The notes under the pieces were generated by a model. The model saw nothing but the letters and a program-made list of their open reading frames with translations, did no database searches and was not told the origin of the DNA. A stretch of DNA of 61,563 bases from NCBI GenBank assembly GCA_947492865.1, contig CANLOR010001096.1, positions 1-61,563 of the forward strand, read 5' to 3'. The DNA comes from Aurantiphycus algarum (GTDB lineage Bacteria > Bacteroidota > Bacteroidia > Cytophagales > Cyclobacteriaceae). A program made the position numbers and the translations under genes. Below are positions 3,574 to 34,258 of this stretch, piece after piece; the stretch's first letter is position 1; the number at the start of each line of letters is the position of its first letter.

Positions 3574-3604
3574 TTTTCTTCTTTTTGGTTTGATGATTAA
3601 TTTT

Positions 3605-18600: not shown

Positions 18601-21600
18601 CCAATCGATTGGCCCTCTCGTTGAGCCGGTTATAGGTGAGTCGCTCTTCACCGAATACTACTGCTGTTCCAGTTCCATAAAATGCCACTTTTTCCTCAAA
18701 AAGGGTAATCATCGTTTTTCCTTTTTGATAATCCTTAAAGGTATTATTATAGGTTTCCAGAAAAAGTGATTCTTCCTCCTCGCTCAGGTACTTTAGGTAG
18801 TCCAAAGGTTTTGTAGGGTTGGAAATGGCATCTCTCAAGATATGTTCTATATGAGTAGACATCCGTTCCATTCTATGGCCCCCGAAAAGATCCGAATTGT
18901 ATGAAATGGCAAGAAATAGCTCCCCATCGTCCTCGGGGGTAAAATCTATGGAAAGGTCGAACATGCTGGTACTCACATCTCCTTCCAGCATAGCAGAAGA
19001 AAGACCTTCTAATTTCAGGTCGTCAATGGACACCTCATTTAGGTTTTGTAATGAAACCATGATGTCAAATATGGGGGACCGGCTCAGGTCCCTTTCCAAA
19101 TCAAGATTGTCCACCAACATATCAAAGGGATAGTCTTGATGGTCATAAGCTTTTACTAAGTTTTCCTTCACTTTTTGCAGTAGGGACCCGAAACCTTCAC
19201 CCCCCGAGAACCTTGTCCTCAGGGCCAGTGTGTTGACATAAAAGCCTATCTGATTCTCTAGATCACTGCGATTCCTTCCTGCAGAAGGGCTACCGATGAC
19301 AATATCATCCTGACCTGTATACCGATATAGCAATGCCTTAGTGGCAGCTACCAGTACCATGTACAAGCTCAACCCTTGCCTTTTGGCAAAATCATGTACT
19401 TGTTCTGAAAGTCCTTTCCCGAGCGACCTGTGAAAGCTACCTCCATTATAGGTTTTGACAATGGGCCTTTTATAGTCTGTCGGCAATTGCAGGACAGGAA
19501 CCTCACCAGAGAATTGCTCAAGCCAATAATTTTTACTTGATGTAAAGACTGCTCCATCAAGTTGATTGTACTGCCAAGCAGCATAATCCTTATATTGAAT
19601 TGCTAAGGGAGGAATATCAGCGTCTTGACCTTGTAGGTACGCATTGTAATAGTTACACAGCTCTGACATCAACACCTGCATGGACCAACCATCTACGATA
19701 ATGTGATGTACAGTAAGCAAAAACAGGTGTTCGTTGTCCGCTATCCGGTATAGTTTAACCCTTAACAAAGGGCCTTCAGACAGGTCAAAGGGCTGCACTG
19801 CTTCTTTTTCGGCAAGTTGTTTTAGGGAGTTTCTATCCACATGGCTATCCCGAAGGTCAACATATCCCAGATCAAAGTCCGTGTCTTCAGGGCTTTTGAC
19901 TATCTGCACGGGCTGTTCATCGATACTACCGAAAGTAGTACGAAGTATTTCATGTCTTGCGATGCTCTTTTCGAAAGCAATACGGAGCACTTCCCGATTC
20001 AGGTCTCCCGTTAAGAGAACTGCCAAAGGTATGTTATAGGCTACTTGGTCTTCTTCCAATTGGTCCAGTATCCAAAGCCGTCTTTGCGCATGCGATATGG
20101 CGAAACCTTTCCCGAGAGTATCGTTTTTCACGCTTTCAATGGGTTGATAACGGGAAGAAGTCTTGTTTTCAAGGATCTTGGACAATGCAACAATGGTAGG
20201 GTTTTGGAACACTTCTTCCAAACTTGGTTTTATTGCCAGTTCCTGATGGATTTTCGAAACCAGTTGGGCTACTTTTAGCGAATGCCCACCTACCTCAAAG
20301 AAATTATCATTTACTCCTACCTTTTTCAGGCCCAATATTTCCTGCCATATGTCAACCAGACTTTTTTCTATAGCGGTCGATGCTTCCCTGTACTCCTGCC
20401 TTGTTGCCCTACGCTCTTCATACAGGTGCATCAATGCTTTTCTATCTATTTTCTGATTAGGGTTCAATGGCCACTCCCTTAGCGCTACAAAAAACGCGGG
20501 AACCATATACTCGGGCAGGTATTGTTTTAAGGTACCCTGAAAAGCGCGAGGGTCAGTTTCTCCGCCGATGTAGAAAGCTATAATGTACTTGGACCCTTCA
20601 CTATCCTCATGCGCGAGCACACATACATCCTCCAAATCGGTATATTCCAATAAACGGCTCTCGATTTCACCGAGTTCTATTCTATACCCTCTTATTTTGA
20701 CCTGAAAATCGTCTCTTCCCGAAAACCTGACCTGTCCCATGCTGTCCCACATCCCAATATCCCCTGTTCTGTAGAGGATATCCTCTTTTTGAAAAGGGTT
20801 ATCCACAAACTTTGTGGCACTAAGCTCTCCTCTATTGTGATAACCAAGGGTGACACCGCTTCCACCGATACAGATTTCTCCCTTTACACCCTCTGGAACC
20901 AAGTTATTCTCTTTATCCAATAGGTAAATATCAGTACCGGGCATGGGGCGACCGATGATACTGCCACTGACACTTGATTTGCTAAAAGTATCATTGGAAT
21001 AGGTAATGGCAGTGCAAAACACTGTCGCCTCGGTCGGTCCATAGGTAACTGATATACTCGCTTTCGGAAAGGCATCCGATAGCATAATCAATAATCGGTC
21101 GGGGACACTATCTCCACCGATAAACAGGTGTACTATATGCTCAAATTCTTTTTGAGCATTGTTTTCCAAGATATAAGTGGCCACTTGTCGGTACACAGCG
21201 GGTACCGTATCCACCACCGTTGCCTCTTTTATCCGGCCCACGAAGTTGGCGATATCCAATACTACTTCCGGCATCAATATATCTACGGTACCTCCCTGCA
21301 CCAAAGGGAGAAAGACTTGAAACATCGCGATATCAAAGGCATTGGATGCAATAAAAGGCATTATCAATGGTCGATGCCATGTAAAATGGGATTGTACATG
21401 ACTCAAAAAACCATTTAGATTCCGATAACTCACCTTGACTCCTTTGGGTTTTCCGGTAGAGCCGGAAGTATAGAGGATATAGGCTATATCCCTCGGGAAA
21501 TACGTAGGTTCAAACTTAGACGAAAGCCCCTCAAGTCCCTCCCACACTTCCTCCTGATAAAGATATGGAGTAGTGCCGGGTTTATAGGTTTGATTCCGGT

Positions 21601-22687
21601 CGATGATCATCATGGTGGGGACGGCATCCGCTTCGACCAAGGGCAGTCTTGCTTTGGCATGTGCTACATCGACAGGAATGTAAATGGCCCCTAGTTTCAA
21701 AATGGCCAATAGGCTGAAAATCAAACGTTCGTCTTTTTCGACACAAAGTACCACTTTGTCACCGCTGGAGAGGCCGTGGGTTTTGGAGTAGTAGTTGGCC
21801 AATTGATTCGAGGTCTCTTCCAGTTCTCGGTAGTTGATATTTCTATCTCCACACTTCAGGGCTATGGCCTTAGGTGTGTTCTCTGCGTATTTTCCTATCT
21901 TGTCGATAAAGTTGGCTCCACCTTGCTGAGAGACGCTACCTCTGCCCATTTGTAGCAACACTTTCTTTTCTTCTTTACTGAGAAGAGTGAGGTTCCGTAA
22001 CTTTATATCAACGTTATCAACACACTGACCTATCAAATGAACATAGTGCCCGATAAGGTTTTTGAGCAACAGCCCCGTCCTGAGGTGGCCTTTGGCTTCG
22101 ATATCGATTTTATCCTCAGTAGTGGTAAAGTGTAGTTGTAGGGAGGCTACGGAACGAGAGTTTACAACAGTACCATGAAGCGCATCCGAGGAAAGTAACA
22201 CCGTAGGTTCGGGAATCTTTTCCAGTCCAAACTCCTTATAGACTCTATCCAATGGGTAGTTCCCATATCGCTTGGACTTTACCAAAGTCTGCTGAAAGGA
22301 AATCAACCATTCCCTAAAGGTCGTTTCACTATTCATATGCTTCCGGAAAGGAAGAAAAGTGTTGATAGGGCTTCCTTCGGCACTTTGGAAAGGTGGGGAA
22401 TAGGTCAGTAGTGCCCTTTCGCCTGTGTAGCGACTTAGGAGTATATGGAAGGTAGCTTGCAAAAAAATGTATACTGCGAGGTCATTTTGCTTACAGAGAC
22501 CCATTACCTTTTTGGAAGTCTCTACGTCCACTATACCGGCATGAGTGGTAATGGCCTCCGATACATCCACTATTTCAATACGCTCATTAAAATCGGCTCC
22601 CTTTAATACTTCTTGCCAAAACCGATGCCCTTCCACAAATCCCCTTTGTGTCAACAGTAACTTCTCTTCTAAACTATTTTTACTCAT
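3605..22687 (-). CDS. Six-module NRPS with terminal thioesterase: halfC-A-T-C-A-T-C-A-T-C-A-T-C-A-T-C-A-T-TE
   Basis: Track ORF of 6360 aa with ATG at 22685-22687. A3 motifs (YTSG[ST]TGxPKG) lie at about 21.46, 18.27, 15.06, 11.89, 8.73 and 5.55 kb, a spacing of roughly 3.2 kb. T-domain GG[HQ]SL motifs lie at about 20.29, 17.09, 13.91, 10.74, 7.58 and 4.45 kb. C-domain HHxxxDG motifs lie at about 19.70, 16.49, 13.34, 10.16 and 7.00 kb. The TE has 'GYSMG'. The N-terminal 250 aa or so align only to the C-terminal lobe of a C domain and have no HHxxxDG. Confidence 0.97.
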   Translation of the reverse strand: MSKNSLEEKLLLTQRGFVEGHRFWQEVLKGADFNERIEIVDVSEAITTHAGIVDVETSKKVMGLCKQNDLAVYIFLQATFHILLSRYTGERALLTYSPPFQSAEGSPINTFLPFRKHMNSETTFREWLISFQQTLVKSKRYGNYPLDRVYKEFGLEKIPEPTVLLSSDALHGTVVNSRSVASLQLHFTTTEDKIDIEAKGHLRTGLLLKNLIGHYVHLIGQCVDNVDIKLRNLTLLSKEEKKVLLQMGRGSVSQQGGANFIDKIGKYAENTPKAIALKCGDRNINYRELEETSNQLANYYSKTHGLSSGDKVVLCVEKDERLIFSLLAILKLGAIYIPVDVAHAKARLPLVEADAVPTMMIIDRNQTYKPGTTPYLYQEEVWEGLEGLSSKFEPTYFPRDIAYILYTSGSTGKPKGVKVSYRNLNGFLSHVQSHFTWHRPLIMPFIASNAFDIAMFQVFLPLVQGGTVDILMPEVVLDIANFVGRIKEATVVDTVPAVYRQVATYILENNAQKEFEHIVHLFIGGDSVPDRLLIMLSDAFPKASISVTYGPTEATVFCTAITYSNDTFSKSSVSGSIIGRPMPGTDIYLLDKENNLVPEGVKGEICIGGSGVTLGYHNRGELSATKFVDNPFQKEDILYRTGDIGMWDSMGQVRFSGRDDFQVKIRGYRIELGEIESRLLEYTDLEDVCVLAHEDSEGSKYIIAFYIGGETDPRAFQGTLKQYLPEYMVPAFFVALREWPLNPNQKIDRKALMHLYEERRATRQEYREASTAIEKSLVDIWQEILGLKKVGVNDNFFEVGGHSLKVAQLVSKIHQELAIKPSLEEVFQNPTIVALSKILENKTSSRYQPIESVKNDTLGKGFAISHAQRRLWILDQLEEDQVAYNIPLAVLLTGDLNREVLRIAFEKSIARHEILRTTFGSIDEQPVQIVKSPEDTDFDLGYVDLRDSHVDRNSLKQLAEKEAVQPFDLSEGPLLRVKLYRIADNEHLFLLTVHHIIVDGWSMQVLMSELCNYYNAYLQGQDADIPPLAIQYKDYAAWQYNQLDGAVFTSSKNYWLEQFSGEVPVLQLPTDYKRPIVKTYNGGSFHRSLGKGLSEQVHDFAKRQGLSLYMVLVAATKALLYRYTGQDDIVIGSPSAGRNRSDLENQIGFYVNTLALRTRFSGGEGFGSLLQKVKENLVKAYDHQDYPFDMLVDNLDLERDLSRSPIFDIMVSLQNLNEVSIDDLKLEGLSSAMLEGDVSTSMFDLSIDFTPEDDGELFLAISYNSDLFGGHRMERMSTHIEHILRDAISNPTKPLDYLKYLSEEEESLFLETYNNTFKDYQKGKTMITLFEEKVAFYGTGTAVVFGEERLTYNRLNERANRLAHRLIAEGCGPEVLVGIMAERSPEMIVAVLAVLKSGAGYLPIDYTYPAERIRYIIEDADINLLLFNTGKETIQDLSVGGVLDLNNEDTYSKDISNPQISHDEDNLAYVIYTSGTTGKPKGVMVTHRSLVNIAQCWIEEYGLSDKTTVLQMASFSFDVFCGDLCRSLLSGGKLVLCPDEARLDPAGLFGIMEKHQVSVLEVTPSYAVPLMSYIFDKELDISWLNMLILGSDSCPVGDFKTLLARHGADIRIINSYGTTETTIDSSFYEVSSVDQVEDIPYVPIGKPMANTKFYILDKNRQFVAEGLVGELCIAGTGVARGYLNKKNLTDERFVKDPFNGGVMYLTGDTAKWLPDGQVEFLGRKDNQVKIRGYRIELDEIEQVLLESPEVKEAVVLVLTGKDDVNDRFICAYYTPANILRVTVSEEIRQFVTERVPEYMVPQHFVVLEKMPLTVNGKVDRKSLPKPNAVENSLSYEPPRNETEKQLVALWEKILNIEEVGIRHHFFKLGGHSLKAIRLIGAINKAFQVSLSIKQIFQHPTISELAKCLLATMEKASEESIVIKETEETENSVYPLSSAQLRLYALYQLNPKSLVYNMPQALLIRCKVDIDHLRGIFDTLIARHEIFRTSFRSEGGTPVQVISDEWDFEIEHVESFDWKLNGKEVLQEIRHFIKPFDISSGPLLRIKIIELREVDQELYLILIDKHHIIIDGISEDLISYEFSQLYSGFELPKVETKYRDYALWQQKLNDSDTLISQKNYWLAQFENDIPQLELPTDHIRPDSITGSGDNVSIVFDKYQLRTLKDYCEEQGVTLFMFMLTAYYLFLSKYSNQEDIIIGTVTSGRQNPAFRSVIGMMVNTIALRARPKGDKMIKTFFNEVKAISVEAFENQDFQFNDLVEALHLDTKAGRRPLFDVMISYHNEEESNDQLQESHIEPYELEGQQSSKFDLTLHCVEYDDGIRLGLEYSTELFLKSTAERMLGHYTFLLKEIIGSPERLLSDIELLTKEERNQWLIDYNDTRVPLPDTDNIPRLFEQQVQNSPQSVALVYDDVALTYTELNEKANRLAHTLKNKGLAKGTPVGLLLDKSQELIIGILGILKAGGAYLPIDIDFPSDRIGYVLSNSKMNLLLVTLNDTVLKLLEEQQLGSVELLMLDSEEVYAEISDNPPSTIMPSDLAYIAYTSGTTGKPKGVMVEHRNVIRLVKNTNYVELDSQTKILQTGSISFDATTFEYWGALLNGGELHILPQEELLKTDSLKQKLIESRISTMWMTSSWFNQVVDHDIEVFSSLSWLLVGGEALSPHHINEVRDRFPKLKLVNGYGPTENTTFSLCYTIDKKHEVNIPIGKPISNTTAYIVDRWGNICPTGVSGELYLGGEGVARGYLGDHQLTKAKFVEKPFAKGTLYQTGDKAQWRSDGLISFMGRVDDQVKIRGFRIEPSEIECTLLQNPNLEKVKVMAWGNEENEKSLCAYFVKTSDAKETDALTLKRSLEKLLPVYMIPTDYIELTSLPLTVNGKIDVGSLPRPDKATIRKTYEAPGNAVEERLVEIWQDVLQKERIGIQDNFFEIGGHSLKAIRVITGISKVFDVELTFKQIFETPTIAELAIVLDKSQKQTFEPIGRVPSAEYYDVSHGQKRLWILQQLEGEAASAYNMPAAYLFEGPLDIKALKASFDQLIERHEILRTTFTLVEGQVKQIIRPWKNLDIPYTDLSEIEASEDKAKSMANEEARVPFDLEEGPLIRAKLIKLSAHKYVFLLTLHHIISDGWSLEILFNEVADFYNAYKNGKNPSPAALRIQYKDYALWQKDQFPDGEISVAEKFWVEQFEDGPPILDIPTDFIRPPVKTYKGEMAGILLSSEVTEALNTLALQHEASLFMTILATVNAFLYRYTGQQDIVLGTPIAGRNHPDLEDQIGFYINTLALRTQFSGEEGFDRLLENVTERTFEAFEHQMYPFDALIDSLSLEREMSRASLFDVMVILQNTSGIVGGSKEMEELHVKTFSAEATHAKFDLTFNFEEVEEGLYLWLNYNRDIFLHQTIERMLAQYETLVLSLTLDPSRPLSTLSILPEKERLVLSDTFNNSTTDTTLFKDITLQDLFEDQVSRTPGLTALVDEFGSITYRSLDEKTTKLANMLRAKGTKAGHPVGIYVGRSTEMVISILAVLKSGAYYIPIDPEYPASRITYILKDSNVGQLLTDRDLPKKVREIIALNVIRFDDLDFEKMAFSEPDEVKVSSDSLAYVIYTSGSTGTPKGVMVRHRSVVNFSKWLGELLYDRTGMVALHTSSFSFDMSVKQLFAPLYHGATVVISTQESKQSPASYLKLIIDNKVDTVDFTPSFLEVILQYAESSSTFLNLKSVLLGGEPLKEGLVRLFYDRVPDGRLLNMYGPTEATVDATATWVELEDTVTIGKPLPNVGIYIVNDSLQLQPIGVPGEICIAGAGLAKGYLNRPKLTEEKFVDSPFRKGEKLYRSGDVGRWLPDGHIEYIGRKDRQVKLRGYRVELGEIERLLEEYPQVEKSVVMPILKEGMTVSLVGYLKTREDLSLKSIASYLEELLPEYMVPGRFFFLKEFPLTANGKVDIDALPSPSAVSDVTGTVYVAPRTALEKQLADIWENLLSVERVGLDDDFFSLGGHSLSAMRMISMVYGQLGVALTLRQVFRNPTLDGLAAVLSAADRSSFAMISPVPNSEYYGVSHGQKRLWVLHELEDGASVAYNMPRAYRLRGTLDIEALSEGFSRSVSRHESLRTTFRMVDGEVRQTVGAFHGFGMDLRDLREEANPEARALELAEEEALLPFDLEKGPLLRAGLLRLSGEEHVLLLTLHHIISDGWSMDIFLSEVTAVYNALASGSDLYREPLRIQYRDYSSWQQEQLDAHGNEHESYWLGRFKGDIPVLDLPTDHPRPRVKTYKGDTVGMELSRTTVEGLRSLSALYGASLFMTVLATVRVLLYRYSGQEDTIIGTPTAGREHPDLEGQTGFYVNTLALRSVLDGGAGFGTLMEQEREDVLSALRHGIFPFDRLVDRLSLDRDMGRSPLFDVMVSLQRSEGVIGGAMELEGISVEPLGTGMDRSKFDLTFNFEEGERGLYLGINYSTDLFSRDTVSRMLSHYELLVASVIASPDAALESLDMLSSEEKKLLLEDFGSGTPQELSPKDTLHGLFVRQAGETPDMEAVADGHRSLTYRELDDRSTALAHLLRERGVGKGHPVAISTDRSVDTVMAILATLKAGAHYIPLDPDYPQSRTDHIVEDSGVSLLLMVGARPAVSISGPCAVLDIGSCNLETPKEVGPPVSVSATDLAYVIYTSGSTGRPKGVMVEHGAVVNLTGWLAGMLYGEKGLSVMLTASFSFDASVQQLFAPLLHGARLVVSPASVKQSAREYLGFLERYRTDIVDLTPSFLEILLQSAEVEALSGISYVLVGGEPLRTTLVQRFHELVPEGRLINVYGPTEATVDTTFTELSKNDSITIGGPIPNAKVHIVNKGLRLQPIGVPGELCISGAGLARGYLNLPELTEERFTDSPFVLGEKLYRSGDMARWLPDGRIDFLGRKDSQVKLRGYRIELGEIEHQLESHPAVEGAVVLPVLNDGHVEHLTAYCKTVRETEEDTLIAHLREVLPEYMLPSRFIMMEEFPLNTSGKVDIKSLPIPSKGVVGYTAHSPARTALEKQLAGIWENLLSVERVGLDDDFFSLGGHSLSAMRMISMVYRQLSVELKLRDIFTTPTLGGLSEIIDGSKGKIQREIAKVPLSEYYDVSHGQKRLWILHQLEGKEARAYNMSEVYRIKGRLEVRALSESFKHLLYRHEVLRTGFKTIDGVLKQYVRSVDDYHLEQTDVSDREWDEDRLSSMIHDYTSEYFDLEAGILIRLRLVELSAEEHVLVLGMHHIISDGWSMELLIRDLVLFYNYCSSGISHKLEPLPFHYKDYAHWQVLELSDNEGDTHGHRAYWLKQFEGELPVLKLPMDRVRPAIQTYNGSTESILIGRELKQDLEGLGKKYKASLFMVLLASTKALLYKYTHQNDIIIGTPIAGRNHPGLEEQIGFYVNTLALRSKIDAEKGFVHLIESVRDTMIDAFEHQVYPFDKLIEELGLPQDMSRSPLFGVMVTMQESNIDEQEFGMESLQVEAVTSDTGTSKFDLTFSFQNVSDKLYLNLNYNTDLFGKYRIDRLMAHFKNLLTALVERDTAPIKEISYIDESEERLIREDFNATELHLPTSRTVIQLFEEQASLKQQGVAVYCGEEHITYDELNRRANQFARDLLRNVPFKRGERIGLVTYRDVHAITAMLGIMKAGAAYVPIDPSYPKDRIKNIIADAELSTLIVDKYWDRHPERLGARSTMALQDIVERHFLSPAENLDIDYAQGDLAYTIFTSGSTGRPKGVMVNHKSLLNLCLWHNAEFDVGQESKTTQYAGIGFDAAVWEIWPCLIAGGELHIIEDNAKLDVLAIGKYIAFNGITHTFLPTPVCENFVKEVPLNTSVLLLTGGDKLAIVDNPGFRLVNNYGPTEATVVATSLRLENINNSDIPIGRPISNMKVYIVDEGDKLCGIGVVGELLISGMGLSEGYVNNEDVTAKNFVDDLFVENSRWYRTGDLGMWMPDGNIRFMGRKDDQVKIMGNRIELGEIESVLLSHEKVKSAKVVVIGEERSKYLAAYIIPAQHCTEVELKSAVEGLLPIYMVPESFVFLEHYPLTANGKIDSTQLPNANKQVQEYSTASTDLEQKLQKAWAKVLEQTAPGITDNFFKSGGQSLKAASLVTQIFTETGEKVTLKDIYNHPTIQSLATYIEGERDDDLLISLNEAEEGKTEKLYMVPPVIGTPLIFKGLSSFLQGRYQCMGLQYKGYNEGERPDTSIDAISDSLLSQVLKTQNTKEVTLFGYSMGAAIAFEMAKKAENRGYTVTLILVDKEVPGTAQKSMDTNELENIIDTELRHWMAVLSESHIETMRRVLHSNLLALHNYTPTGQVKGNIYAIEARDNPCATDMQEWDRLTQARCFVQETEGDHYGILNKENILSLTDKIMNIRSVETV
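3608..4315 (-). other. Thioesterase (TE) domain, the chain-release domain of the assembly line
   Basis: These are the last 236 aa or so of the 6360-aa protein. The GxSxG nucleophile is 'GYSMG' (Ser codon about 4052-4054). Candidate Asp ('ILVDKE') and His ('EGDHYG') lie downstream. It directly follows the last T domain. Confidence 0.85.
7542..7675. repeat. Direct repeat copy A (134 nt), N-terminal half of the module-5 T domain
   Basis: My hand alignment to 10698-10831 shows 8 mismatches in 134 nt. The offset is 3156 nt, so the copies are in frame. This copy encodes RTALEKQLAGIWENLLSVERVGLDDDFFSLGGHSLSAMRMISMVY. Confidence 0.9.
10698..10831. repeat. Direct repeat copy B (134 nt), N-terminal half of the module-4 T domain
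   Basis: Partner of 7542-7675. The encoded peptide is identical except for one residue (LAD versus LAG). Confidence 0.9.
21983..22645 (-). other. N-terminal half condensation domain (C-terminal lobe only, no HHxxxDG) of the 6360-aa NRPS
   Basis: The residues align to the second half of a C domain. 'HRFWQEVL' matches the YWxxxL region, 'AVYIFLQATFHILLSRYTGERALLTYSP' the C5 region, 'INTFLPFR' the C6 region and 'YGNYPLDRVYKEFGL' the C7 region. Nothing upstream corresponds to C1-C3. Confidence 0.75.
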
Positions 22688-22774
22688 AATCTGTCATTAG
22701 TAATCATTGGACCAGCTTCGATTATTAAATCCACACAAACAAATGTGGGTCGGCAGGTCGAAAAGATTGTTCTT

Positions 22775-25700
22775 TTAAAAATTAAATACTTCACCTTCAT
22801 CAAACATATCGGTCTCCGATACAGCGGGTTTGTGGTCCATCCTATCGGTACTCAGTTCTAGGTCGATGAGGCTTTGATTCATATCAGTGGACATCATAGA
22901 GATGACTTTTTGAAAATGTCCGACGAACAGTACCATTTCAGCTCGATGGAATCTTCCCACAGGATAGGTTAGGGTTCCCGTCAATCCGCCTCTCGGATTT
23001 TCGAATATCATGATATCCACATCAAAATCACTCGGTACCTTACCGGCTATATCCGGGCTGATCGATACCCCGGACAGGGTATTTTCCATACCATCATTCT
23101 TTTCGTAGGAAAACAGTATATTGAACAGAGGGCGTTGATGGGGGTTGTTTTCTGCCCCCAATATTCTTACCAATTCATCGAAAGGGTATTCCTGATGATC
23201 CCATGCAGCGTATACATTATTCCTTACTTTGGACAATAGGCTCCCTAGCGTATCTTCTTCGGCCAACAATGTCCTTATAGCCAATACGTTGACATAGCAT
23301 CCTATCTGATGTAAGATGTCCGGATGATCTCTACCCGATATGAGACTACCAATAATGATATCTGTATCTCCGGTATACCGGTATACAAGGGTTTTTAAAC
23401 AGGATAGTAATAGGACAAACATTGTAGAATTTTTTTCCGAACCGATCTTATCAAGCCGATCTGCCTGCTCCTTTGGTATGGAAAAATCCAATACATCAGC
23501 ACCTTCCGTACTATTGTCCCCTTTGGAACCGAAGGGCAGGGATACCCATTGTCTGGGTGCCTTCAGGTATTCCATCCAAAAAGCCTTGTGCTGTGCCATT
23601 TTGTCAGAATTCATCCATTGATTCTGCCATTCGGCATACTCTTTATACTGTAGAGTCAATGGTGCCGGTCTGTATTCCTCATTTTTTATATCAGCATTGT
23701 AACTATCACCTATTTCACTGACAATCAACTTTAAAGACCATGCATCTGATATGATATGGTGCATCGATAAGGCCAATCGATATTTATCCTCTCTTAACTG
23801 CACTAGTAATACCCTGAACAAAGGCCCCTTCTCAAGGTCGAAGTCCGTATTTACTTCTTTTTTGATCAAAGCATGTACTTCTTCGCCTGCATCTTCCTTG
23901 CCTCTAAAGTCATGGTAGGTTACAGCAAAACCGCATTCTTCTGCTGTATCGATTTTCTGCACGGGCAGTCCATCCAACGTTGGGAAGGTGGTCCTCAATA
24001 TTTCATGTCTTTTCACAATACCATCAAAAGCTTTTATAAAACTGCCGACCTCTAGGTATCCATTAAGAATATAGCCGCCCGAAATCGCATAGTCTGTACC
24101 ACCACCTTCTCTTTGGGACAAAAGCCACATTCTACGTTGGGCCGGTGAGAGTTCATAATAGGCTCTTTCTTCGAGTGGTGCAATGGGAGCGTAATTCTTC
24201 TGCTGTTGAGAAAGGAGAAATCCAGCAAGAGAGGCAACGGTCGGGTACTGTAGGACACTACTTATCTCGATGCTATAATGGAGCTGTTTCTTGATTTTGC
24301 CGACCAAGCGGGTGGCTATCAAGGAGTGTCCTCCCAGTTCAAAAAAGTTATCGTCAATACCTACTGGCCGCACTTCGAGTAGTTCTTCCCAAATAGGACA
24401 CAGCTGTTCTTCCAATTGATTTCCGGGAGCTGAAAATAACGTAAGGGGCTGCACTGGTACACTTCGCTCGAGCAGTGCTTTACGGTCGGCCTTTCCACTG
24501 GACAATAGAGGCATAGCCTCTAGTTCGACCCATATTCGGGGAATCATGTACCTTGGCAATTTCGATGCTAGGTACATTTCTGTCCTTGCCCTGTCCAATA
24601 CTCCTATTTTGACAACATAACCTATCAGCTGACCATCTCCATTCCTTTCTGATTTAATACAGACTGCTTGACTGATTTCCGGTATTTCAAGTAAAACCTG
24701 TTCGATTTCGCCCAGTTCGATACGGTATCCTCTCAGCTTTACCTGGCCATCCTGCCTACCCAAGAACTCAATAGTACCATTGGGCAACCACCGTCCCATG
24801 TCTCCTGTCCTGTATACCTTTTCTGTAGAATAGATAGGATGAGAAAGGAACCTCTCCTCGGACATTGACCCTTGGTTCAGATATCCCCTTGCCACCCCAT
24901 CACCACCGATGTAGATTTCGCCCTTTACATTCAAGGGACATAGGTTTCCGGTCTTGTCCAGAATCAATACATGCTCACCTTTCAGTGGCCTACCAATGGA
25001 CAAGCTATCCTCTCGCCCTATATCCAAGCTCGTACTCCATAGGGTCGTTTCCGTAGGGCCATATACATTGAATACCTTTGTGTCACCCAACTCTTTCAAA
25101 CGACCATACTGATAGGGGCTTAGCACCTCTCCTCCTACCAGCAAGACTTTGAGCTGGCGCAAACACGTTATCTCTCCATCCTTCAACTCCAGCAGTTGAC
25201 TCAATCGGGAGGGCGTAAGTTGTAACGCATCTATTTCGCCTTTGTCGATGTGCGCCAGCATGGTTCGTGGATCCTCATCCATTATCAAGGTGTGCATGCC
25301 ATTGGCCAAGGTACCCAACAGCTCCATGACGGAGACATCAAAAGAGTAATTGGTAATAGCACCGAAGGTCATACTGGGCAGTAAGTGGAAATTACTCTCC
25401 ATATTTTTGAAAAAGGCCACCACATTTTTATGCTCGACCATCACTCCTTTAGGTACGCCCGTAGAACCGGATGTGTAGAGGACATAGGCAAGGTCAAAAG
25501 GCCTGCTCACCAAATCAGGGTTATCTTTAGTGTATTTGGAGGCCGTATCCACCAACTTTTGCAGCGCTTTGGTATCAATGACAGAACAGCAGCCACTCTC
25601 GGACAATAGCCTATCGATACGGTCTTGTGGCCAATCGTTTTCCAAAGGTAGGTAGGCGGCACCCGTCTTGAGAATACCCAGTATCGTTACTACGGTCCAA

Positions 25701-28618
25701 TGACTTCTATCCAGTTGGATAGCCACAATATCTCCTGCTTGAACATAAAGTTCTCTTTTAAGGTATTCTGCACATTGGTTTGCCTGCTCGTTCAGCATTT
25801 GATAGGATAGGGAAGTATCCTTGAAGGTGAGTGCCCTCCTGTAGGGATACCTCTCTACCTGCTCTTCAAAGAGACTTACAATAGTACCGGTGGTGGATAT
25901 GGAAAGCGTGTCCTGTGTATTGAAACTGTTCTTTAAAACCGTCAATCTTTCCAAGCTGTCCATAGTAGCTTGATAATCCACTCCAAAGTCTGTCAGACAG
26001 GCAATCTCATCAACTCCAATTTCAGAAGCTGCTTTCAGCTGACGCCGACAGGTTGCCTCGGTACCTATCAAAGCGGTGTTTTCCACATGCCATTCGAAGG
26101 AATGCTCCAACATATCGCTGAGATCTTCTTTACTGTAGTCTTGTAAAGAAATGTCCGCATTCGTACTTTGCCCCAACTTATCGGAAAGCTGGAGTGATTG
26201 TAAGAGATACTTCATGAGGGGTTCTTTGGTGACGCTATACGCCTGCTCTTCGTCTTTGCCCAGATAAGTATGCATCATCAGTGCCACTTTTGCCTTTCCG
26301 ACGGGATGACCGTTCTCTGCATATGCCTCTCGGTAAGCATCTATCTTCGGTCTCAAGGATTCCGGTGTGGTGTTCAATAGGCCCGTTAAGATATTCATTC
26401 CCAGATGACCTGCCTTTTTGAAATTATCGATATTACCACTTATGGTCATCCATATGGGCAGTGTTTTACGGTATGGTTTTGGAAAAATCTCGCAGGCTTG
26501 TATTACTCCATTGCCATCTTTAAAGGATACTGTATCGCCTCTCCATAATTTTTCTATATACTGGATGTTTTGATACATGATATCATGACGCCCATCGAAG
26601 CTATCGGGAGAAAGGACAAAATCATTGGCATTCCATCCAGGTGCACAGGCAATACCCACCCTGCCCTGAGACAAATGGTCCACCACTGCCCACTCTTCGG
26701 CCACTCGTAGTGGGTGATGCAGTGGAAGGACCACACTTCCTGCCCGAATACCAATAGTCTCGGTAATGGCCGCTATCGCGGCACCGAGTACCGAAGGGTT
26801 AGGGTAAGGGCCTCCAAACGGGTGAAAATGGCGCTCGGGGGTCCATATGGCCGAATACCCGTGCCTATCAGCGTACCTTGCCCCTTCCATCAAAAACCGA
26901 TAGCCATCGCTTTCCATACCTTCACTTCCAAAATACAGGAGACTAAAGTCCATTTTAGCCGCTCTTGAACCACTAGGTGGAGGTATATGATGGCTGGCTC
27001 TAGGGGACAAAGGTCTTGTATGCTCCAGTGCACCGAATTCCAATAGTTGCTTTTTCTCTGTTTCTGTCAAGAAGTTCAGTGAGCTGATAGGCTGATGAGG
27101 TTTTTTCAGTACCTGTTCCATCATTTGGATCAGGTGTTCGAAGAATCTACTAACGGTACTTTGGTCATAGATGTCACAGTTGTATTCCAATCCGGTCTTC
27201 AGACCTTCAGCTGTTTCGGATAGGTTTATGATAAGGTCAAAAGCACAATAGGGAACCCCCGCCCCCTCATAGCCCCGTACTTCCAATCCATCCAGTGCTT
27301 CCCGCACTAGATCCGGTTCGAAATCGGTCTCTTGGGACTTTTGCAAAATCAAGAATACATCGAACAAAACACTTCTCTCCAAGTTACGGGCAGGATTCAG
27401 TTTGTTTATCAGCATATCAAAAGGATACTGTCGGTGTTCGTAAGCCTCCAATGTACTACTTTTCGCCAGTTCCAGTAGTTCCGTAAAAGAAAAAGATCCG
27501 TCGAATCGTGTCCTCAAGGCCAGTGTGGCCGCATAGAAACCTATCTGATCTTTTAGATCGGGATGATCTCTATCCGCTATAGGAAAGCCGATAACCGTAT
27601 CTTCTTGTTGCGTATAGCGGTAAAACACCGTATTGAGCACCGCTATAAGTCCCATAAAAAGGGTTCCTCCCCGCTCACGACAGAAAAGCTTAAACCGCTG
27701 GAGTAATTCTTTGTCAATATACCGATGTATGGCTTCTGCATTATAGGTTTTTATGGCCGGTCTCTTTTTCTTTGTAGGCAGTTCCAATACGGGTATTTCA
27801 CCCTCAAATTTCTTTAGCCAATACGCCTCGTCTTCTTTGAGCTGTCTGCCTTTCAGCTGGGCAAGCTTCCATAGCGTATAGTCCTTGTAATGTATCCTCA
27901 ATGGCTTCAAGGGCTTTGTGTTTCCTTGGGTAGCTGCCTTGTAAAATAGTAGCAATTCATCTTTTAGAATGTTCATCGACCAGCTATCTCCAGTGATGTG
28001 ATGGAGCACATTGACCAGCACCCATTTGTGATCTGTCATCCAATAGAGTGAGGCGCGCAAAACCGGCCCCGTGGACAAATCAAAGGGCTTCCCGACCTCT
28101 TCTCGCAACAGACTGTCCAGTTCTTCTTTTTCCTTATTTTCCGAACGAAGGTCCACTTGGGATAATCGGAAGCCTGCCTGCTTCCCGGAAAGTATGAACT
28201 GTCTTACCTCTTCACCTTGTCCCATACGATATACCGTACGTAAGCTCTCATGACGCTCGATGAGCCCTTCAAAGGCAAAAATCAATGCATCGATATCCAG
28301 ATTTCCTTCGAATATGGCAACTTGGTTCATGTTATAGGCCACACTGCTTTTTTCGCTTTGGCTTATGATCCAAGACCTTCGCTGTGATGGTGATAGTGGA
28401 TAACCGAACTCACTGACGGGTGCGGGAAGTATACACGGACCATCCACATGTTGCTTTTGCTGCAAATAGCTAACAATAGCTTGTTTATGCTGTGCTATCT
28501 CCTCCAGAACCATCTCCGATATTTCATTGTCCGGGTAATTTACCTCTAGGTCCGTTCCGGAGAGTGCGATGTTAATATCACTACCGGCAAGACGTTCGAT
28601 CAAGCTCTCTGTATTCAT
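22775..28618 (-). CDS. NRPS: docking domain-C-LLM(monooxygenase)-A-T-C
   Basis: Track ORF of 1947 aa whose start overlaps the PKS stop by 4 nt. The first C domain has 'LHHITGDSWS' (about 27.99 kb). A luciferase-like domain follows ('MDFSLLYFG...GYSAIWTPERHF...RVAEEWAVVDHLSQGRVGIA'). The A3 motif 'YVLYTSGSTGVPKGV' is at about 25.47 kb and the T motif 'FFELGGHSLIATRL' at about 24.33 kb. The terminal C domain has 'MHHIISDAWS' (about 23.75 kb). The protein ends in an acidic tail '...DMFDEGEVFNF'. Confidence 0.95.
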   Translation of the reverse strand: MNTESLIERLAGSDINIALSGTDLEVNYPDNEISEMVLEEIAQHKQAIVSYLQQKQHVDGPCILPAPVSEFGYPLSPSQRRSWIISQSEKSSVAYNMNQVAIFEGNLDIDALIFAFEGLIERHESLRTVYRMGQGEEVRQFILSGKQAGFRLSQVDLRSENKEKEELDSLLREEVGKPFDLSTGPVLRASLYWMTDHKWVLVNVLHHITGDSWSMNILKDELLLFYKAATQGNTKPLKPLRIHYKDYTLWKLAQLKGRQLKEDEAYWLKKFEGEIPVLELPTKKKRPAIKTYNAEAIHRYIDKELLQRFKLFCRERGGTLFMGLIAVLNTVFYRYTQQEDTVIGFPIADRDHPDLKDQIGFYAATLALRTRFDGSFSFTELLELAKSSTLEAYEHRQYPFDMLINKLNPARNLERSVLFDVFLILQKSQETDFEPDLVREALDGLEVRGYEGAGVPYCAFDLIINLSETAEGLKTGLEYNCDIYDQSTVSRFFEHLIQMMEQVLKKPHQPISSLNFLTETEKKQLLEFGALEHTRPLSPRASHHIPPPSGSRAAKMDFSLLYFGSEGMESDGYRFLMEGARYADRHGYSAIWTPERHFHPFGGPYPNPSVLGAAIAAITETIGIRAGSVVLPLHHPLRVAEEWAVVDHLSQGRVGIACAPGWNANDFVLSPDSFDGRHDIMYQNIQYIEKLWRGDTVSFKDGNGVIQACEIFPKPYRKTLPIWMTISGNIDNFKKAGHLGMNILTGLLNTTPESLRPKIDAYREAYAENGHPVGKAKVALMMHTYLGKDEEQAYSVTKEPLMKYLLQSLQLSDKLGQSTNADISLQDYSKEDLSDMLEHSFEWHVENTALIGTEATCRRQLKAASEIGVDEIACLTDFGVDYQATMDSLERLTVLKNSFNTQDTLSISTTGTIVSLFEEQVERYPYRRALTFKDTSLSYQMLNEQANQCAEYLKRELYVQAGDIVAIQLDRSHWTVVTILGILKTGAAYLPLENDWPQDRIDRLLSESGCCSVIDTKALQKLVDTASKYTKDNPDLVSRPFDLAYVLYTSGSTGVPKGVMVEHKNVVAFFKNMESNFHLLPSMTFGAITNYSFDVSVMELLGTLANGMHTLIMDEDPRTMLAHIDKGEIDALQLTPSRLSQLLELKDGEITCLRQLKVLLVGGEVLSPYQYGRLKELGDTKVFNVYGPTETTLWSTSLDIGREDSLSIGRPLKGEHVLILDKTGNLCPLNVKGEIYIGGDGVARGYLNQGSMSEERFLSHPIYSTEKVYRTGDMGRWLPNGTIEFLGRQDGQVKLRGYRIELGEIEQVLLEIPEISQAVCIKSERNGDGQLIGYVVKIGVLDRARTEMYLASKLPRYMIPRIWVELEAMPLLSSGKADRKALLERSVPVQPLTLFSAPGNQLEEQLCPIWEELLEVRPVGIDDNFFELGGHSLIATRLVGKIKKQLHYSIEISSVLQYPTVASLAGFLLSQQQKNYAPIAPLEERAYYELSPAQRRMWLLSQREGGGTDYAISGGYILNGYLEVGSFIKAFDGIVKRHEILRTTFPTLDGLPVQKIDTAEECGFAVTYHDFRGKEDAGEEVHALIKKEVNTDFDLEKGPLFRVLLVQLREDKYRLALSMHHIISDAWSLKLIVSEIGDSYNADIKNEEYRPAPLTLQYKEYAEWQNQWMNSDKMAQHKAFWMEYLKAPRQWVSLPFGSKGDNSTEGADVLDFSIPKEQADRLDKIGSEKNSTMFVLLLSCLKTLVYRYTGDTDIIIGSLISGRDHPDILHQIGCYVNVLAIRTLLAEEDTLGSLLSKVRNNVYAAWDHQEYPFDELVRILGAENNPHQRPLFNILFSYEKNDGMENTLSGVSISPDIAGKVPSDFDVDIMIFENPRGGLTGTLTYPVGRFHRAEMVLFVGHFQKVISMMSTDMNQSLIDLELSTDRMDHKPAVSETDMFDEGEVFNF
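25931..26953 (-). other. Luciferase-like (flavin-dependent) monooxygenase domain embedded in the C-A linker
   Basis: It covers about aa 556-896 of the 1947-aa protein. It begins right after the normal C-A linker ('LTETEKKQLLEFG') and ends just before the pre-A1 region ('IVSLFEEQVERYPYRRAL'). The sequence pattern is typical of the natural-product LLM domain family (MupA / MtaG-MOx-like). Confidence 0.8.
28454..28609 (-). other. TubC-type N-terminal docking domain
   Basis: Residues 4-55, 'ESLIERLAGSDINIALSGTDLEVNYPDNEISEMVLEEIAQHKQAIVSYLQQ', follow the L..L...G..L...G..L.v..P......l...l..HK..i...L pattern of TubC-like docking domains. The domain sits at the N-terminus of the protein that must receive the chain from the PKS. 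Confidence 0.55.
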
Positions 28619-31647: not shown

Positions 31648-34258
31648 GGCTATTTTCGTTGATCAGTTTAATGGTATTTTTCATCAGGGCCGTCGAAGCC
31701 TCGATATCCCCTGTTGATTCTTGAAGGTTTTTCTTTGTTATTTTCAGAATATAATCCGATAGTGCAGAAACATTGGAGTACTTGAATGCCGACAGAATGG
31801 GCAGTTTCAATCCCAGCTCTTCGTTTATCCGGTTGATCAGGATAGCTATTCTGATAGAGTTTCCCCCAGAACTGAAAAAGCTATCTTTTACACCTACTTG
31901 CTCGGTAACCAGTATCTGCTGCCAAATCTTGAGCAGCCTTTGTTCCATCTGTTTTGTGGACGGGGTACCCTTGTACACACCTTTGGCTTGTGGTCTTTTT
32001 TGAACGGATAAGGCTTTTTCGTCTATTTTACCGTTTTGGTTTAAGGGCATTCGCTGTCGCTGCTCGATAAATACGGGTATCATATAGGTTGGCAGGCACT
32101 CCATCAGGTGACTATGAACATACTCGGTTTCCAGAGTTTCCTTACTGACAAAAAATGCGGCTATAGCCTTTTCCTGTTCCTTGTTTACTGTTAAGGTGGC
32201 AATTGCTTCATCGATTTCAGGAAGTAGGAGCATAGTATTTTCTATTTCTCCCAGTTCTATTCGGTAGCCTCTGACCTTCACTTGTCTATCTCGGCGGCCC
32301 AGAAACTCCAGCATTCCTTTTTCGGTCAGCCTAGCGGTATCTCCCGTTCTGTACAATCGGTCGTTTTCCGATAAGGGGTTATCGATGAATTGTTTCGATG
32401 TCAGTCCCGGTCGGTTCAGATAGCCTTGGCTAACACCACCTCCTGAAATGTAGATTTCTCCTACACTCCCTTCTTCCACGGGTTTGAGTGCTTTATCCAT
32501 GATAAAAATAGAGGTATTGGGCATAGGACGACCGACGATATTACCTTTTGCCGGACATTGCCCTAAATCCCTACTTTGATAGGTGATAGCAGTACAGAAC
32601 ACAGTAGCTTCGGTAGGTCCGTAGGTGACCGTAATAGTGGCCTTAGGAAACGCAATGGCCATAGAGCGAAGTAGTTTATCCGATATAGTATCTCCTCCTA
32701 TAAAAAGTGATTGTATATGTTTGTAATCTTTCTCGCTGCCATGGTTTATGATCTCATCGACAACCTGCCTGTAGAGTGAAGGTACAGCATCCATGATGTT
32801 GACCTGTTTCAGTTGGTTCACTAGGTTCCCTATATCCATGATATCGGTACTGGAAAACAAATCGACAGTACCCTTGGTCGTAAGGGGCAGTAATAACTGA
32901 AACATAAAGATATCAAAAGCATTGGAAGCTATCAGCGGCATTATGGGTGTCCGTACCCAAGGAAATGCGGTGTGCAGACTATCTACAAATGAGCTGAGGT
33001 TTGCCTCACTGACCTGGACACCTTTTGGTTTTCCGGTTGAACCTGAGGTGTAGATGATATAGGCGATATTCTGCGGAATAGAACGGTATTCGAATCTTGG
33101 ATTGCCCATCGTGATGATGGTCTTCCAGACTTCGTCGATATTGATACATTTTGAGGTCTTGGGCCGAAAAATGGTATGACCTTCCTTGAGTATATACAAG
33201 GGCCGAGCATCTTTCTCTATAAAGGGAAGTCTCGAATCTGCATGAAGGATATCGACGGGCAGGTATACCACATTGGCTTTCATCAAAGCCAGTAGGCAAA
33301 AAATCATACGTTCCGTTCTTTCCATACAGAGTATCACCCGATCGCCTGCCAAAAGCTGCAAATCGGCTCGAAAATAATTGGCCAATTTATTGGAGACGGT
33401 TTCCAGATCATCATATGTAAATGAGCTGCCCGACGTTTTCAGTGCTATCTTGGATGGAGACTCCTTTGCCGTTGCACTTATGATTTCCAGAAAATGCCGG
33501 TTGCCACATTCCCTATCGGGCAGGTTTATTTTTTTGGTCATATCGGACAAGTATAGACCGATATCCTCTATTCTAACATGAGGCCAGTGCAGACATAGCC
33601 TTGCAATAGCGTTAAAATTATCAACAAGGTCCATTAGAAAATCCCTATCTCCCTTCCCCTTCAACTGTAGCGATAGCTTTGATCTGTGAATATGGTAGCT
33701 ACAACAAATGCTATAGGAATCGATGATTTCAGTGTCAAACTTATGCAGCGCTTCGGAGTAGAGGATAATTTCAGGATTACGGACAGGCTGTCTACCCAAC
33801 GACTGATAAACCGTTTCCAATAAGTGGTCTTGGTACTTCCTACATTTTTCGGTCTGTTTTTGAGTGGCGGCAAGTACTGTCCTGAACGTTTGCCCCGACT
33901 TCATTTTACCTGTTAAGGGGAGCAGTGCATTTCCGGGTACCGTCTTCTCTTTTTCACAAAAAGGAGGACAGTATAAGGTTATATCAGCGATACCCAAACA
34001 CTCTGAAAAGGTAATTTTCAGTATCGTCTGAAATAGTATAAATAGGGCAAAATCACTCTTTTTACATACCGAGAACATCTTTTTGGATGTTTCCAAAGGC
34101 AAGTCCACCGTTATACTCTCCATGTTGCCCACGTTGCGCAAACCAAGACGTTCTTCATGGTTACCTTCGGCCAGCACTATAGTCCAAAATCGATCCGCCT
34201 CTTTATAGCTCGGCTGCCTCAACAGGTACTGATCATCCATTTTATTTTCCTCCGGCAT
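31637..34258 (-). CDS. Single-module NRPS: halfC-A-T
   Basis: Track ORF of 873 aa. The N-terminal 245 aa or so are homologous to the N-terminus of the 6360-aa protein ('DRFWTIVL', 'ALFILFQTILKITFSECLG') and have no HHxxxDG. The A3 motif 'YIIYTSGSTGKPKGV' is at about 33.04 kb and the T motif 'FFSSGGNSIRIAIL' at about 31.86 kb. Confidence 0.93.
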   Translation of the reverse strand: MPEENKMDDQYLLRQPSYKEADRFWTIVLAEGNHEERLGLRNVGNMESITVDLPLETSKKMFSVCKKSDFALFILFQTILKITFSECLGIADITLYCPPFCEKEKTVPGNALLPLTGKMKSGQTFRTVLAATQKQTEKCRKYQDHLLETVYQSLGRQPVRNPEIILYSEALHKFDTEIIDSYSICCSYHIHRSKLSLQLKGKGDRDFLMDLVDNFNAIARLCLHWPHVRIEDIGLYLSDMTKKINLPDRECGNRHFLEIISATAKESPSKIALKTSGSSFTYDDLETVSNKLANYFRADLQLLAGDRVILCMERTERMIFCLLALMKANVVYLPVDILHADSRLPFIEKDARPLYILKEGHTIFRPKTSKCINIDEVWKTIITMGNPRFEYRSIPQNIAYIIYTSGSTGKPKGVQVSEANLSSFVDSLHTAFPWVRTPIMPLIASNAFDIFMFQLLLPLTTKGTVDLFSSTDIMDIGNLVNQLKQVNIMDAVPSLYRQVVDEIINHGSEKDYKHIQSLFIGGDTISDKLLRSMAIAFPKATITVTYGPTEATVFCTAITYQSRDLGQCPAKGNIVGRPMPNTSIFIMDKALKPVEEGSVGEIYISGGGVSQGYLNRPGLTSKQFIDNPLSENDRLYRTGDTARLTEKGMLEFLGRRDRQVKVRGYRIELGEIENTMLLLPEIDEAIATLTVNKEQEKAIAAFFVSKETLETEYVHSHLMECLPTYMIPVFIEQRQRMPLNQNGKIDEKALSVQKRPQAKGVYKGTPSTKQMEQRLLKIWQQILVTEQVGVKDSFFSSGGNSIRIAILINRINEELGLKLPILSAFKYSNVSALSDYILKITKKNLQESTGDIEASTALMKNTIKLINENSHEN
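33524..34216 (-). other. N-terminal half condensation domain (C-terminal lobe only) of the 873-aa NRPS
   Basis: It has the same layout as 21983-22645 and visible sequence similarity to it. The catalytic His motif is absent. Confidence 0.7.

Follow-up and report, generated by a model that had tools for sequence, protein, structure and literature searches.

Acidic aromatic C-terminal tails and condensation half-domains at split modules: a probable new docking pair of nonribosomal peptide synthetases

RESULTS

Two modules of a hybrid assembly line are split between condensation and adenylation domains

We analyzed a 61,563-nt contig of Aurantiphycus algarum (CANLOR010001096.1, referred to below as the window), in which every large open reading frame (ORF) lies on the minus strand. 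Domain mapping with Pfam and local phmmer searches assigned these ORFs to one hybrid nonribosomal peptide synthetase/polyketide synthase (NRPS/PKS) assembly line, which by its domain order is of the lipopeptide type. Two of its modules are split between the condensation (C) and adenylation (A) domains, at the hand-overs from protein G1947 to H6360 and from A6986 to E873 (Table 1). At both junctions the upstream protein carries, after a complete C domain, an acidic tail of 20-24 residues ending in FNF, and the downstream protein begins with the C-terminal lobe of a C domain (hereafter half-C) fused to its first A domain. As argued below, the tail and the half-C probably represent a new class of NRPS docking pair.

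Table 1. Coordinates of the two split junctions, of the remaining assembly line and of tail-bearing radical SAM genes in related loci
Feature	Location (nt)	Strand	Domain content or basis
Complete terminal C domain of G1947 (aa 1488-1929)	22832..24157	minus	Pfam Condensation 4-451/456, E=1.7e-92
Acidic tail TDRMDHKPAVSETDMFDEGEVFNF of G1947 (aa 1924-1947)	22778..22849	minus	proposed donor docking motif; stop codon 22775-22777
Spacer between G1947 and H6360 (87 nt)	22688..22774	minus	in frame with both genes; three stop codons
N-terminal half-C of H6360 (aa 1-245)	21953..22687	minus	C-terminal lobe alone; proposed acceptor platform
First A domain of H6360 (aa 264-750)	20438..21898	minus	Pfam AMP-binding 268-617
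Complete terminal C domain of A6986 (aa 6530-6971)	39275..40600	minus	Pfam Condensation 4-452/456, E=3.6e-100; HHIIADGWS
Acidic tail VSDQQTTSEGLSEDEPLFNF of A6986	39230..39289	minus	sequence; alignment with the G1947 tail
N-terminal half-C of E873	33509..34258	minus	partner of A6986 by co-linearity
A6986	39227-60187	minus	FAAL-T-(C-A-T)x5-C-tail
Three tailoring genes between A6986 and E873	34264-39196	minus	
E873	31637-34258	minus	half-C-A-T
F1010	from 28615	minus	KS-AT-T; PKS; C-terminus ...IERKTVKI
G1947	22775-28618	minus	TubC_N dock-C-luciferase-like monooxygenase (LLM)-A-T-C-tail
TubC_N beta-hairpin docking domain of G1947 (aa 4-54)	28457..28609	minus	Pfam PF18563, E=4.3e-6
H6360	3605-22687	minus	half-C-A-T-(C-A-T)x5-TE
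ABC transporter and CmlA-type beta-hydroxylase	after H6360		
B12-radical SAM gene, L018	3194-4924		...EGDFGF end; many further loci
B12-radical SAM gene, L020	3093-4940		...EGDFGF end
B12-radical SAM gene, L033	3151-4899		...EGDFGF end
B12-radical SAM gene, L074	3243-4955		...EGDFGF end

Anatomy of the two junctions

The terminal C domain of G1947, which an earlier note on this sequence had described as complete, indeed spans nearly the whole Pfam profile and has the active-site motif HHIISDAWS. We infer that it condenses the peptide received from upstream with the amino acid that the first H6360 module loads. The C-terminal sequence of G1947 is ...QSLIDLELSTDRMDHKPAVSETDMFDEGEVFNF, and the part following the complete C domain reads ...LIDLELSTDRMDHKPAVSETDMFDEGEVFNF. 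The acidic FNF tail is therefore present as described, except that the stretch beyond the folded domain reaches position 22849 and not 22852. The next protein, H6360, starts 87 nt downstream. Residues 12-165 match the Condensation profile only at positions 186-356 of 456 (E=5.5e-12, 45.6 bits against a curated cut-off of 30.6), so that the profile search suggested in the note does return the partial, C-lobe alignment expected there. The half-C lacks HHxxxDG and has degenerate C5-C7 motifs. It is joined by its own C-A-type linker to the A domain, which starts at about residue 264 and is followed by a thiolation (T) domain at aa 772-841. The spacer cannot encode the missing N-lobe, because it comprises only 29 codons and is blocked by stops; no N-lobe is thus hidden upstream, as the note had also maintained.

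The same arrangement had been claimed for the hand-over from the 6986-aa to the 873-aa protein. The layout is indeed the same, with A6986 closing in '...LIDIEMVSDQQTTSEGLSEDEPLFNF*' after its complete C domain, but the two genes are not adjacent, being separated by three tailoring genes, and the Pfam match of the E873 half-C is weak when taken alone (positions 186-341, E=0.0024, 17 bits, under the curated cut-off). Just 5 nt lie between E873 and the preceding ORF. Sequence comparison links the two junctions on both sides, and the view that their tails and half-Cs can be aligned with one another holds. The E873 and H6360 half-Cs share 29% identity over 251 residues (E=5e-32), and the E873 half-C is the second-best match of the half-C profile introduced below; the terminal C domains of G1947 and A6986 together with their tails are 39% identical, the alignment being continuous to FNF. 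HHxxxDG is missing from both half-Cs and present in both upstream terminal C domains.

When aligned to the full C-lobes of the window, the half-Cs still start with 'YW' and retain the central helices as well as the C-A-type linker; two loops, 'AGRxHPxLExQIG' and 'RDxSRxPLFD', are gone. In a separate MAFFT alignment (A8), the tail segment 'DMFDEGEV' (22778-22819) pairs with 'LFEEQV', the first helix of cis A-domain N-termini. On this alignment, the tail may descend from a C-A linker and the start of an A domain. Two further ideas were considered, namely that the tail imitates the C4 motif belonging to the absent N-lobe, and that its 'FN' stands in for 'FNxT', which is degenerate in the C-A linkers of the window.

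Recurrence of half-C starts and tails among bacterial proteins

A profile built from both window half-Cs was searched against 1.84 billion representative proteins and returned 4754 matches; the protein-level counts given here refer to the best 150 of them. The half-C is located at the N-terminus (residues 1-60 onward) in 96 of the 150, and these proteins were taken as half-C starts because the match begins at the protein N-terminus with profile positions of at least 150. The match to the full-length C-domain model (Cfull, a hidden Markov model) begins at position ~182-190, and the half-C itself begins 10-20 aa ahead of the 'YW' motif, at the boundary between the lobes. Across phyla the half-C is kept at 20-50% identity, with invariant positions of its own. 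Thus, the term 'relic', which the note had used for it, is not supported: the domain is conserved, is predicted to adopt the canonical arrangement of C-lobe and A core, and is found in cis as well, directly following a full C domain. By homologue search, the closest proteins to E873 share only 33-36% identity with it, the best named match spanning the half-C region coming from Fulvivirga (Bacteroidota).

The tail is similarly widespread. A C-terminus of the form [FWY]x[FWYLIM] is found in 45 of the best 150 half-C matches as opposed to 3 of 119 control NRPSs, which were retrieved through the A-T part of E873; for the stricter FxF the counts are 33 of 150 and 1 of 119. Most of the 45 proteins with the broader ending (37) are themselves half-C starts. 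Altogether, 139 distinct tails gave the consensus [ED][DE][EDQ]G[DE]-F-[GDNE]-F-COOH, and their net charge averages -2.6 across the final 12 residues. The tails of G1947 (...DEGEVFNF) and A6986 (...EDEPLFNF) fit this consensus save for Val and Leu, respectively, at position -4.

In one protein of 5423 aa (P0054), three units of the order T-C-half-C-A-T are present in cis (residues 935-1663, 2255-2980 and 3573-4303). In each of them the full C domain runs directly into the second C-lobe, with no FxF motif between. As these units are not divided between genes, gene splitting alone does not account for the half-C, and the tail is seen only at junctions of separate proteins. Judging by these sequences, the cis version fits a tail that would be needed only in trans.

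Several other searches were negative. The half-C alone as a query in a word-indexed protein search gave no matches, and a regular-expression search for read-through fusions that retain the tail matched only the ordinary C4 motif 'YKDFAxW'. The Nostoc protein P0194, chosen for its high query coverage, proved to start with a full C domain. No natural half-C-A start was found among solved structures in a sequence search of the Protein Data Bank.

Genomic context of the half-C

For the genome scan we used a larger and better-conserved half-C subfamily, and the context statistics accordingly come from relatives that are ~20-25% identical to the window half-Cs. The scan returned 80 loci (Aminicenantes/Acidobacteriota, Omnitrophota, Halanaerobiales, Clostridia, Deferrimicrobium, Nostoc, Wukongibacter and Clostridium frigidicarnis). 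No more than 50 codons of open frame precede the half-C in any of the 78 loci with a locatable upstream in-frame stop; in the other two the match lies too near the contig end. The ORF that ends 10-80 nt upstream typically closes with ...GDFGF, DFDF, DFNF or EFAF, and ...[DE][DE]xGDF[GDN]F is the usual pattern at the end of the ORF just 5' of the half-C.

Neighbouring same-strand ORF pairs were counted over these loci (L002-L081). A tail is followed by a half-C in 57 pairs and by another kind of protein in 29, but never by a full C domain (0 pairs). ORFs without a tail precede a half-C in 13 pairs and another protein or a full C domain in 36, including six full C domains. The association between tail and half-C at neighbouring genes is strong (Fisher p=1.3e-5). 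The survey of other genomes that had been suggested therefore does reveal tails followed by half-Cs in many bacterial phyla. Loci were also approached from the tail side, using metagenome loci selected through the C-domain end (n=20). In this sample a half-C or half-C-like start comes directly next in 8 cases, and a tail-bearing radical SAM enzyme in 4 (3 distinct). The window junctions exemplify a conserved and widespread kind of junction, seen where a module is divided between its C and A domains.

Two examples illustrate how the junction looks elsewhere. On the Bacillus cereus plasmid pBCA1, a 'type I PKS' ends with T-C-...DFGDFNF*, and 26 nt on an NRPS begins with a half-C; neighbouring genes encode a GNAT protein, ACP, acyl-CoA dehydrogenase, acyltransferase and hydroxyacyl-CoA dehydrogenase. 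By its gene set this cluster looks like one of the zwittermicin type, with a ZmaA/ZmaB-like pair. A Bacteroidota-like contig codes for a protein ending with ...EDWDFEF*, followed by one of the order half-C-A-T-C-...FDFNF*.

Some loci depart from this layout. In L073, L077 (upstream end ...ELIDILDKF) and L012 (...EEEEIIL), NRPSs with a half-C are preceded by subunits ending in a T domain, and no C domain is visible for the condensation step at the junction. The protein at 2409-6419 of L089 has a half-C-like N-terminus (KEMKYWLDKFSGEL), after which a complete C domain, and not an A domain, begins at residue ~213.

The tail also occurs on tailoring enzymes and covaries with the half-C

Most cases in which a tail is followed by something other than a half-C involve a ~570-aa B12-binding radical SAM protein (Pfam Radical_SAM and B12-binding), and some a ~400-aa protein. 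These ORFs usually end in a tail themselves and precede a half-C gene (Table 1), giving the recurring gene order NRPS(...C-tail), tailoring enzyme(s) with tail, half-C-A-T. As no C-A linker was ever part of the radical SAM and other tailoring enzymes, the tail must be more than a vestige of such a linker. By their position, the radical SAM genes imply a tailoring step that would act on a carrier-bound substrate. A protein of ~350-400 aa with a 'CTRCVLPETYPGI' motif (L009 1873-3078, L069 9217-10422, L044 7821-8858) sits between the tail-ending NRPS and the radical SAM or half-C genes, and two of its three copies end with ...DDDFSF.

At the variable position -2, 10 of 20 junctions have matching residues in their two tails, whereas shuffling predicts 4.7 (p=0.002); the matches include the rare variants DFSF/DFSF, EFNF/EFNF and DFNI/DFNL. 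To relate the tails to the half-C itself, mutual information between tail positions and half-C columns was computed for 64 pairs. One column stands out with z=6.8, the others being near background. It corresponds to the residue that follows 'SDx' where the 'LHMIL' helix begins ('SDx[R/K]LHMIL'). Asp or Glu is found at tail position -4 in 37 of 40 pairs when this half-C residue is Arg or Lys, compared with 10 of 24 when it is non-basic (p=1.5e-5). Both window pairs have Ala at the covarying half-C position and Val or Leu at tail position -4.

Structure predictions

The AlphaFold2 (AF2) model of H6360(1-700), covering the half-C and the A domain, has a mean predicted local distance difference test score (pLDDT) of 81 and a predicted template modelling score (pTM) of 0.78, with blocks of the half-C ranging from 43 to 92 in pLDDT. 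Superimposed on solved C-A didomains (Txo1/2, LgrA, McyB, SrfA-C, EntF), the model reaches query-normalised template modelling (TM) scores of 0.79-0.84, whereas against A-only structures the value is about 0.55. Based on this superposition, the half-C is predicted to occupy the normal C-lobe position on the A core. In the model of the terminal C domain of G1947 with its tail, the C domain has a pLDDT of 83, and the last 24 residues have values of 25-35 and are without secondary structure. The tail is thus predicted to be disordered on its own, as expected of a linear motif.

Remaining features of the assembly line

The junction between F1010 and G1947 belongs to the known class of short linear motif (SLiM) and beta-hairpin docking domain (betaHD), connecting a PKS T domain to an NRPS C domain, and no FxF tail precedes it. 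As this TubC_N junction coexists with the two tail/half-C junctions, two docking types would operate side by side in one assembly line. In G1947 a Bac_luciferase domain (E=4.5e-51) is inserted between the first C and A domains (aa 568-871; window 25000-27000), directly after the KS-AT-T PKS module, which is without KR. A homologue, P0199, is named 'MupA/Atu3671 family FMN-dependent luciferase-like monooxygenase'.

Of the three genes between A6986 and E873, one codes for a Biopterin_H aromatic amino-acid hydroxylase fused to a class I/II aminotransferase, another for a glyoxalase/HPPD-like dioxygenase and the third for an FAD-linked oxidase. Taken as a set, these genes resemble a route to a non-proteinogenic aromatic amino acid, perhaps one of the hydroxyphenylglycine type. 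At 199-1818 (minus strand) lies the gene for a diiron beta-hydroxylase of the CmlA_N type, with a metallo-beta-lactamase fold (E=1.7e-97), which lacks an FxF tail; presumably it acts in trans and hydroxylates an amino acid bound to a carrier.

Three A domains, namely the two that follow the half-Cs and that of A6986 module 4 (20588-22687, 32159-34258 and 45122-47296, minus strand), have in common the signatures 'MPFIASxAFDIxxFQ' and 'VTYGPTEATVFCT', which are absent from the cluster's remaining A domains. These shared motifs suggest a single A-domain subfamily or substrate class. A different peculiarity of A domains was seen among the relatives, where P0022 (residues ~640-670) and L034 (5001-7097) have the insertion 'FLRGSRGQF(F/L)QKEPPGRRRLY' just ahead of the 'TGDL' motif.

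DISCUSSION

A docking mechanism and its alternatives

We lean towards the following reading of the tail/half-C pair, with modest confidence: the disordered, acidic FxF-COOH tail docks on the inactive C-lobe platform and thereby tethers the catalytic C domain and, in relatives, tailoring enzymes as well. The upstream protein retains the catalytic C domain and, beyond it, an acidic tail of ~20-25 residues, predicted to be disordered, ending in aromatic-x-aromatic-COOH (FNF here). The downstream protein begins with a catalytically dead C-lobe, predicted to lie on the A core where the C-lobe of a normal C-A-T module sits. The tail would most likely act as a short linear docking motif that binds the half-C or the platform formed by half-C and A domain. 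Such docking would hold the upstream C domain near enough for the downstream T domain to bring its aminoacyl thioester to the C acceptor site. In relatives, trans-acting tailoring enzymes (B12-radical SAM proteins and others) bearing the tail would be recruited to the same platform. We infer both the physical contact between tail and half-C and its role in subunit ordering.

A broader version is possible, and we put it forward more tentatively: the half-C may be the general recruitment hub of a new docking class with a readable pairing code, capturing the acidic aromatic-x-aromatic-COOH tails of NRPS and PKS subunits and of tailoring enzymes alike. Under such a code, Arg or Lys in the half-C helix would pair with Asp or Glu at tail position -4, and Ala with Val or Leu, as in the window.

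A number of observations weigh against docking of this kind. The AF2 alignment consisted of the window's cis C-lobe-A sequences, and the canonical packing of half-C and A domain in the model may be inherited from them. The adjacency table is biased, the loci having been sampled through the half-C; in the tail-side sample, a full C domain comes next in two cases (the related loci L098 and L100) and unrelated genes in the rest. One tail (L048) is followed by a protein whose start lies at the C-A linker and which has no half-C, some of the 13 half-C proteins that follow ORFs without a tail come after a T domain, and certain tail-ending proteins are not followed by an NRPS gene (L105, L093-L096). 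The covariation statistics ignore relatedness, and junctions duplicated as units would give the same signal. The tails of the window deviate from the consensus at the very position that covaries, having V or L for D or E. Finally, tails within one genome are very alike (GDFGF), so their last residues alone would give little specificity for the order of subunits. Thus, the docking idea of the earlier note gains from the tails on tailoring enzymes, the covariation and the predicted disorder, but an exclusive pairing is not borne out, as the full-C, half-C-less and tail-less cases demonstrate.

These same exceptions lend some weight to another explanation, in which the half-C is only a scaffold that keeps up the platform of C-lobe and A core, and so stabilises or activates an A domain whose real C domain lies on another protein, the tail binding elsewhere (the A, T or upstream C domain, or another protein), or the subunits being coupled mainly by a C:T interaction. 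A scaffold would account for the superposition of the half-C-A model on canonical C-A didomains, for half-Cs in cis behind a full C domain, where docking is unneeded, for the 13 half-C starts without an upstream tail, and for tails before a half-C-less A-domain protein or, twice, before full-C starts. Nevertheless, we regard this main rival as less likely than docking, since it leaves unexplained the strong association of tail and half-C at neighbouring genes, the tail on radical SAM enzymes encoded directly before half-C genes, and the covariation in charge between a half-C helix position and tail position -4. Still less probable is that both elements are functionless leftovers of gene assembly, in which recombination or fission between the lobes (XUC-type breakpoint) and in the C-A linker left the downstream gene with a duplicated C-lobe and the upstream gene with a short piece of C-A linker and A-domain start. 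The start of the half-C at the inter-lobe boundary, shortly before the 'YW' motif, the position of the tail in place of a C-A linker, with 'DMFDEGEV' paired to the A-domain helix 'LFEEQV', and the loss of the C5 and C7 motif loops are all in keeping with such an origin. However, leftovers would hardly be conserved across phyla with invariant positions of their own, nor would they yield a sharp, C-terminal consensus about tenfold commoner than in control NRPSs, tails that covary within junctions, or a tail on enzymes that never had a C-A linker. As for an annotation or assembly artefact, in which a mis-called start, a frameshift or a pseudogene conceals the N-lobe, the metagenome assembly as a source and the common reading frame of G1947 and H6360 might invite it. 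It is effectively refuted by the in-frame stops of the short spacer, by the 5 nt upstream of E873 and by the occurrence of the layout in 96 representative proteins and ~70 independent loci, complete genomes and plasmids included.

Significance of a docking pair within the module

Docking elements set the working order of multi-protein assembly lines and are prime tools for peptide engineering. An intra-module docking pair between C and A domains would account for the working of modules that are split in nature, among them those of the polymyxin and zwittermicin types, which are of clinical or agricultural interest. It would also point to a mechanism by which radical SAM and other tailoring enzymes are recruited to carrier-bound substrates. 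Such a pair would offer a natural, compact alternative to synthetic zippers for NRPS splits at exchange unit (XU) and XUC breakpoints. On the broader version, with the half-C as a general hub, natural C/A junctions would represent a portable, engineerable plug for subunits and tailoring enzymes. In genome mining, a simple sequence rule (an FxF-ending tail, the next protein with a C-lobe start) could improve the prediction of subunit order.

Comparison with known systems

The earlier note did not recognise the pair as a described docking class, and we found none to which it belongs in docking and structural reviews or in the full-text literature, subscription-only literature being outside the search. 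A 2021 review lists only COM and PAX as NRPS-exclusive docking classes, with beta-hairpin docking domains treated apart, all at junctions between modules (PMC9113145). A 2023 structural review covers COM, docking domains and the X domain, and nothing like the tail/half-C pair (PMC10510592).

Modules split between C and A domains are themselves already known from annotated clusters, such as that of polymyxin with PmxB (PMC3708778). The same division is found here, with the upstream protein ending in C and the downstream one providing A-T, in A6986/E873, in G1947/H6360 and in the pBCA1 pair. In the open papers on polymyxin and zwittermicin the split is treated as domain organisation only, the tail and the half-C being neither described nor given a function. 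The half-C does not qualify as a catalytic condensation domain (PF00668), having just one lobe of the profile and no HHxxxDG.

COM domains of Bacillus-type NRPSs (Hahn & Stachelhaus 2004, as cited in PMC9113145 and PMC12402864) likewise are terminal elements for the hand-over between NRPS subunits, with a C-family domain on the acceptor side. However, a COM donor consists of a helix that follows an E or T domain, whereas the window tail comes after a C domain of the HHxxxDG type, the last domain of its protein, and is predicted to be unstructured. Moreover, on the acceptor side COM uses the N-terminal portion of a full C domain (the N-lobe side), exactly what the half-C lacks. A PAX-type junction, in which a C-terminal dock attached to T meets a small helical N-terminal dock before C, does not agree with the order C-tail/half-C-A.

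There is also a relation to NRPS engineering. Bozhüyük et al. are said to have introduced in 2019 the XUC exchange units, composed of C-acceptor-subdomain-A-T-C-donor-subdomain. Since the downstream proteins start at the inter-lobe boundary that defines the XUC, half-C-A-T amounts to a natural XUC-like unit. The engineered fusion, in contrast, joins two halves into one active C domain, whereas at the window junctions a complete upstream C domain is already present and the half-C comes as a surplus, inactive lobe. In a synthetic-zipper study drawing on the related XU concept, NRPSs were split artificially at the C-A linker, with no natural equivalent cited (PMC8362031).

Parallels are also found in two other systems. 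Reitz et al. reportedly described in 2019 the interface (I) domain of siderophore NRPSs as an inactive C-like domain that recruits trans-acting oxygenases. The X domain of glycopeptide NRPSs is such a domain too (PMC10510592). Here as well a catalytically dead condensation fold appears to serve as a platform, since tail-bearing radical SAM enzymes of the relatives appear to be recruited at the half-C. However, X and I domains are full-length, two-lobed and internal and bind folded partner surfaces, whereas the half-C is a single N-terminal lobe paired with an FxF tail. The combination of an acidic, disordered C-terminal motif with a folded N-terminal domain is shared with SLiM/beta-hairpin docking (TubC_N, PF18563; PMC9113145). 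PF18563 has no match in the first 260 aa of H6360 or E873 even at E<=10, with aa 4-54 of G1947 as the positive control. In addition, the window tails follow complete C domains and not a carrier protein, the acceptor is a C-lobe of ~245 aa and not an alpha-beta-beta-alpha-alpha hairpin domain of ~50 aa, the junction is intra-module, between C and A, and the motif ends in FxF-COOH. The tail/half-C pair thus fails the defining features of each of these systems, yet it would work like both, joining a disordered docking motif, as in SLiM/beta-hairpin docking, to an inactive condensation platform, as in X and I domains.

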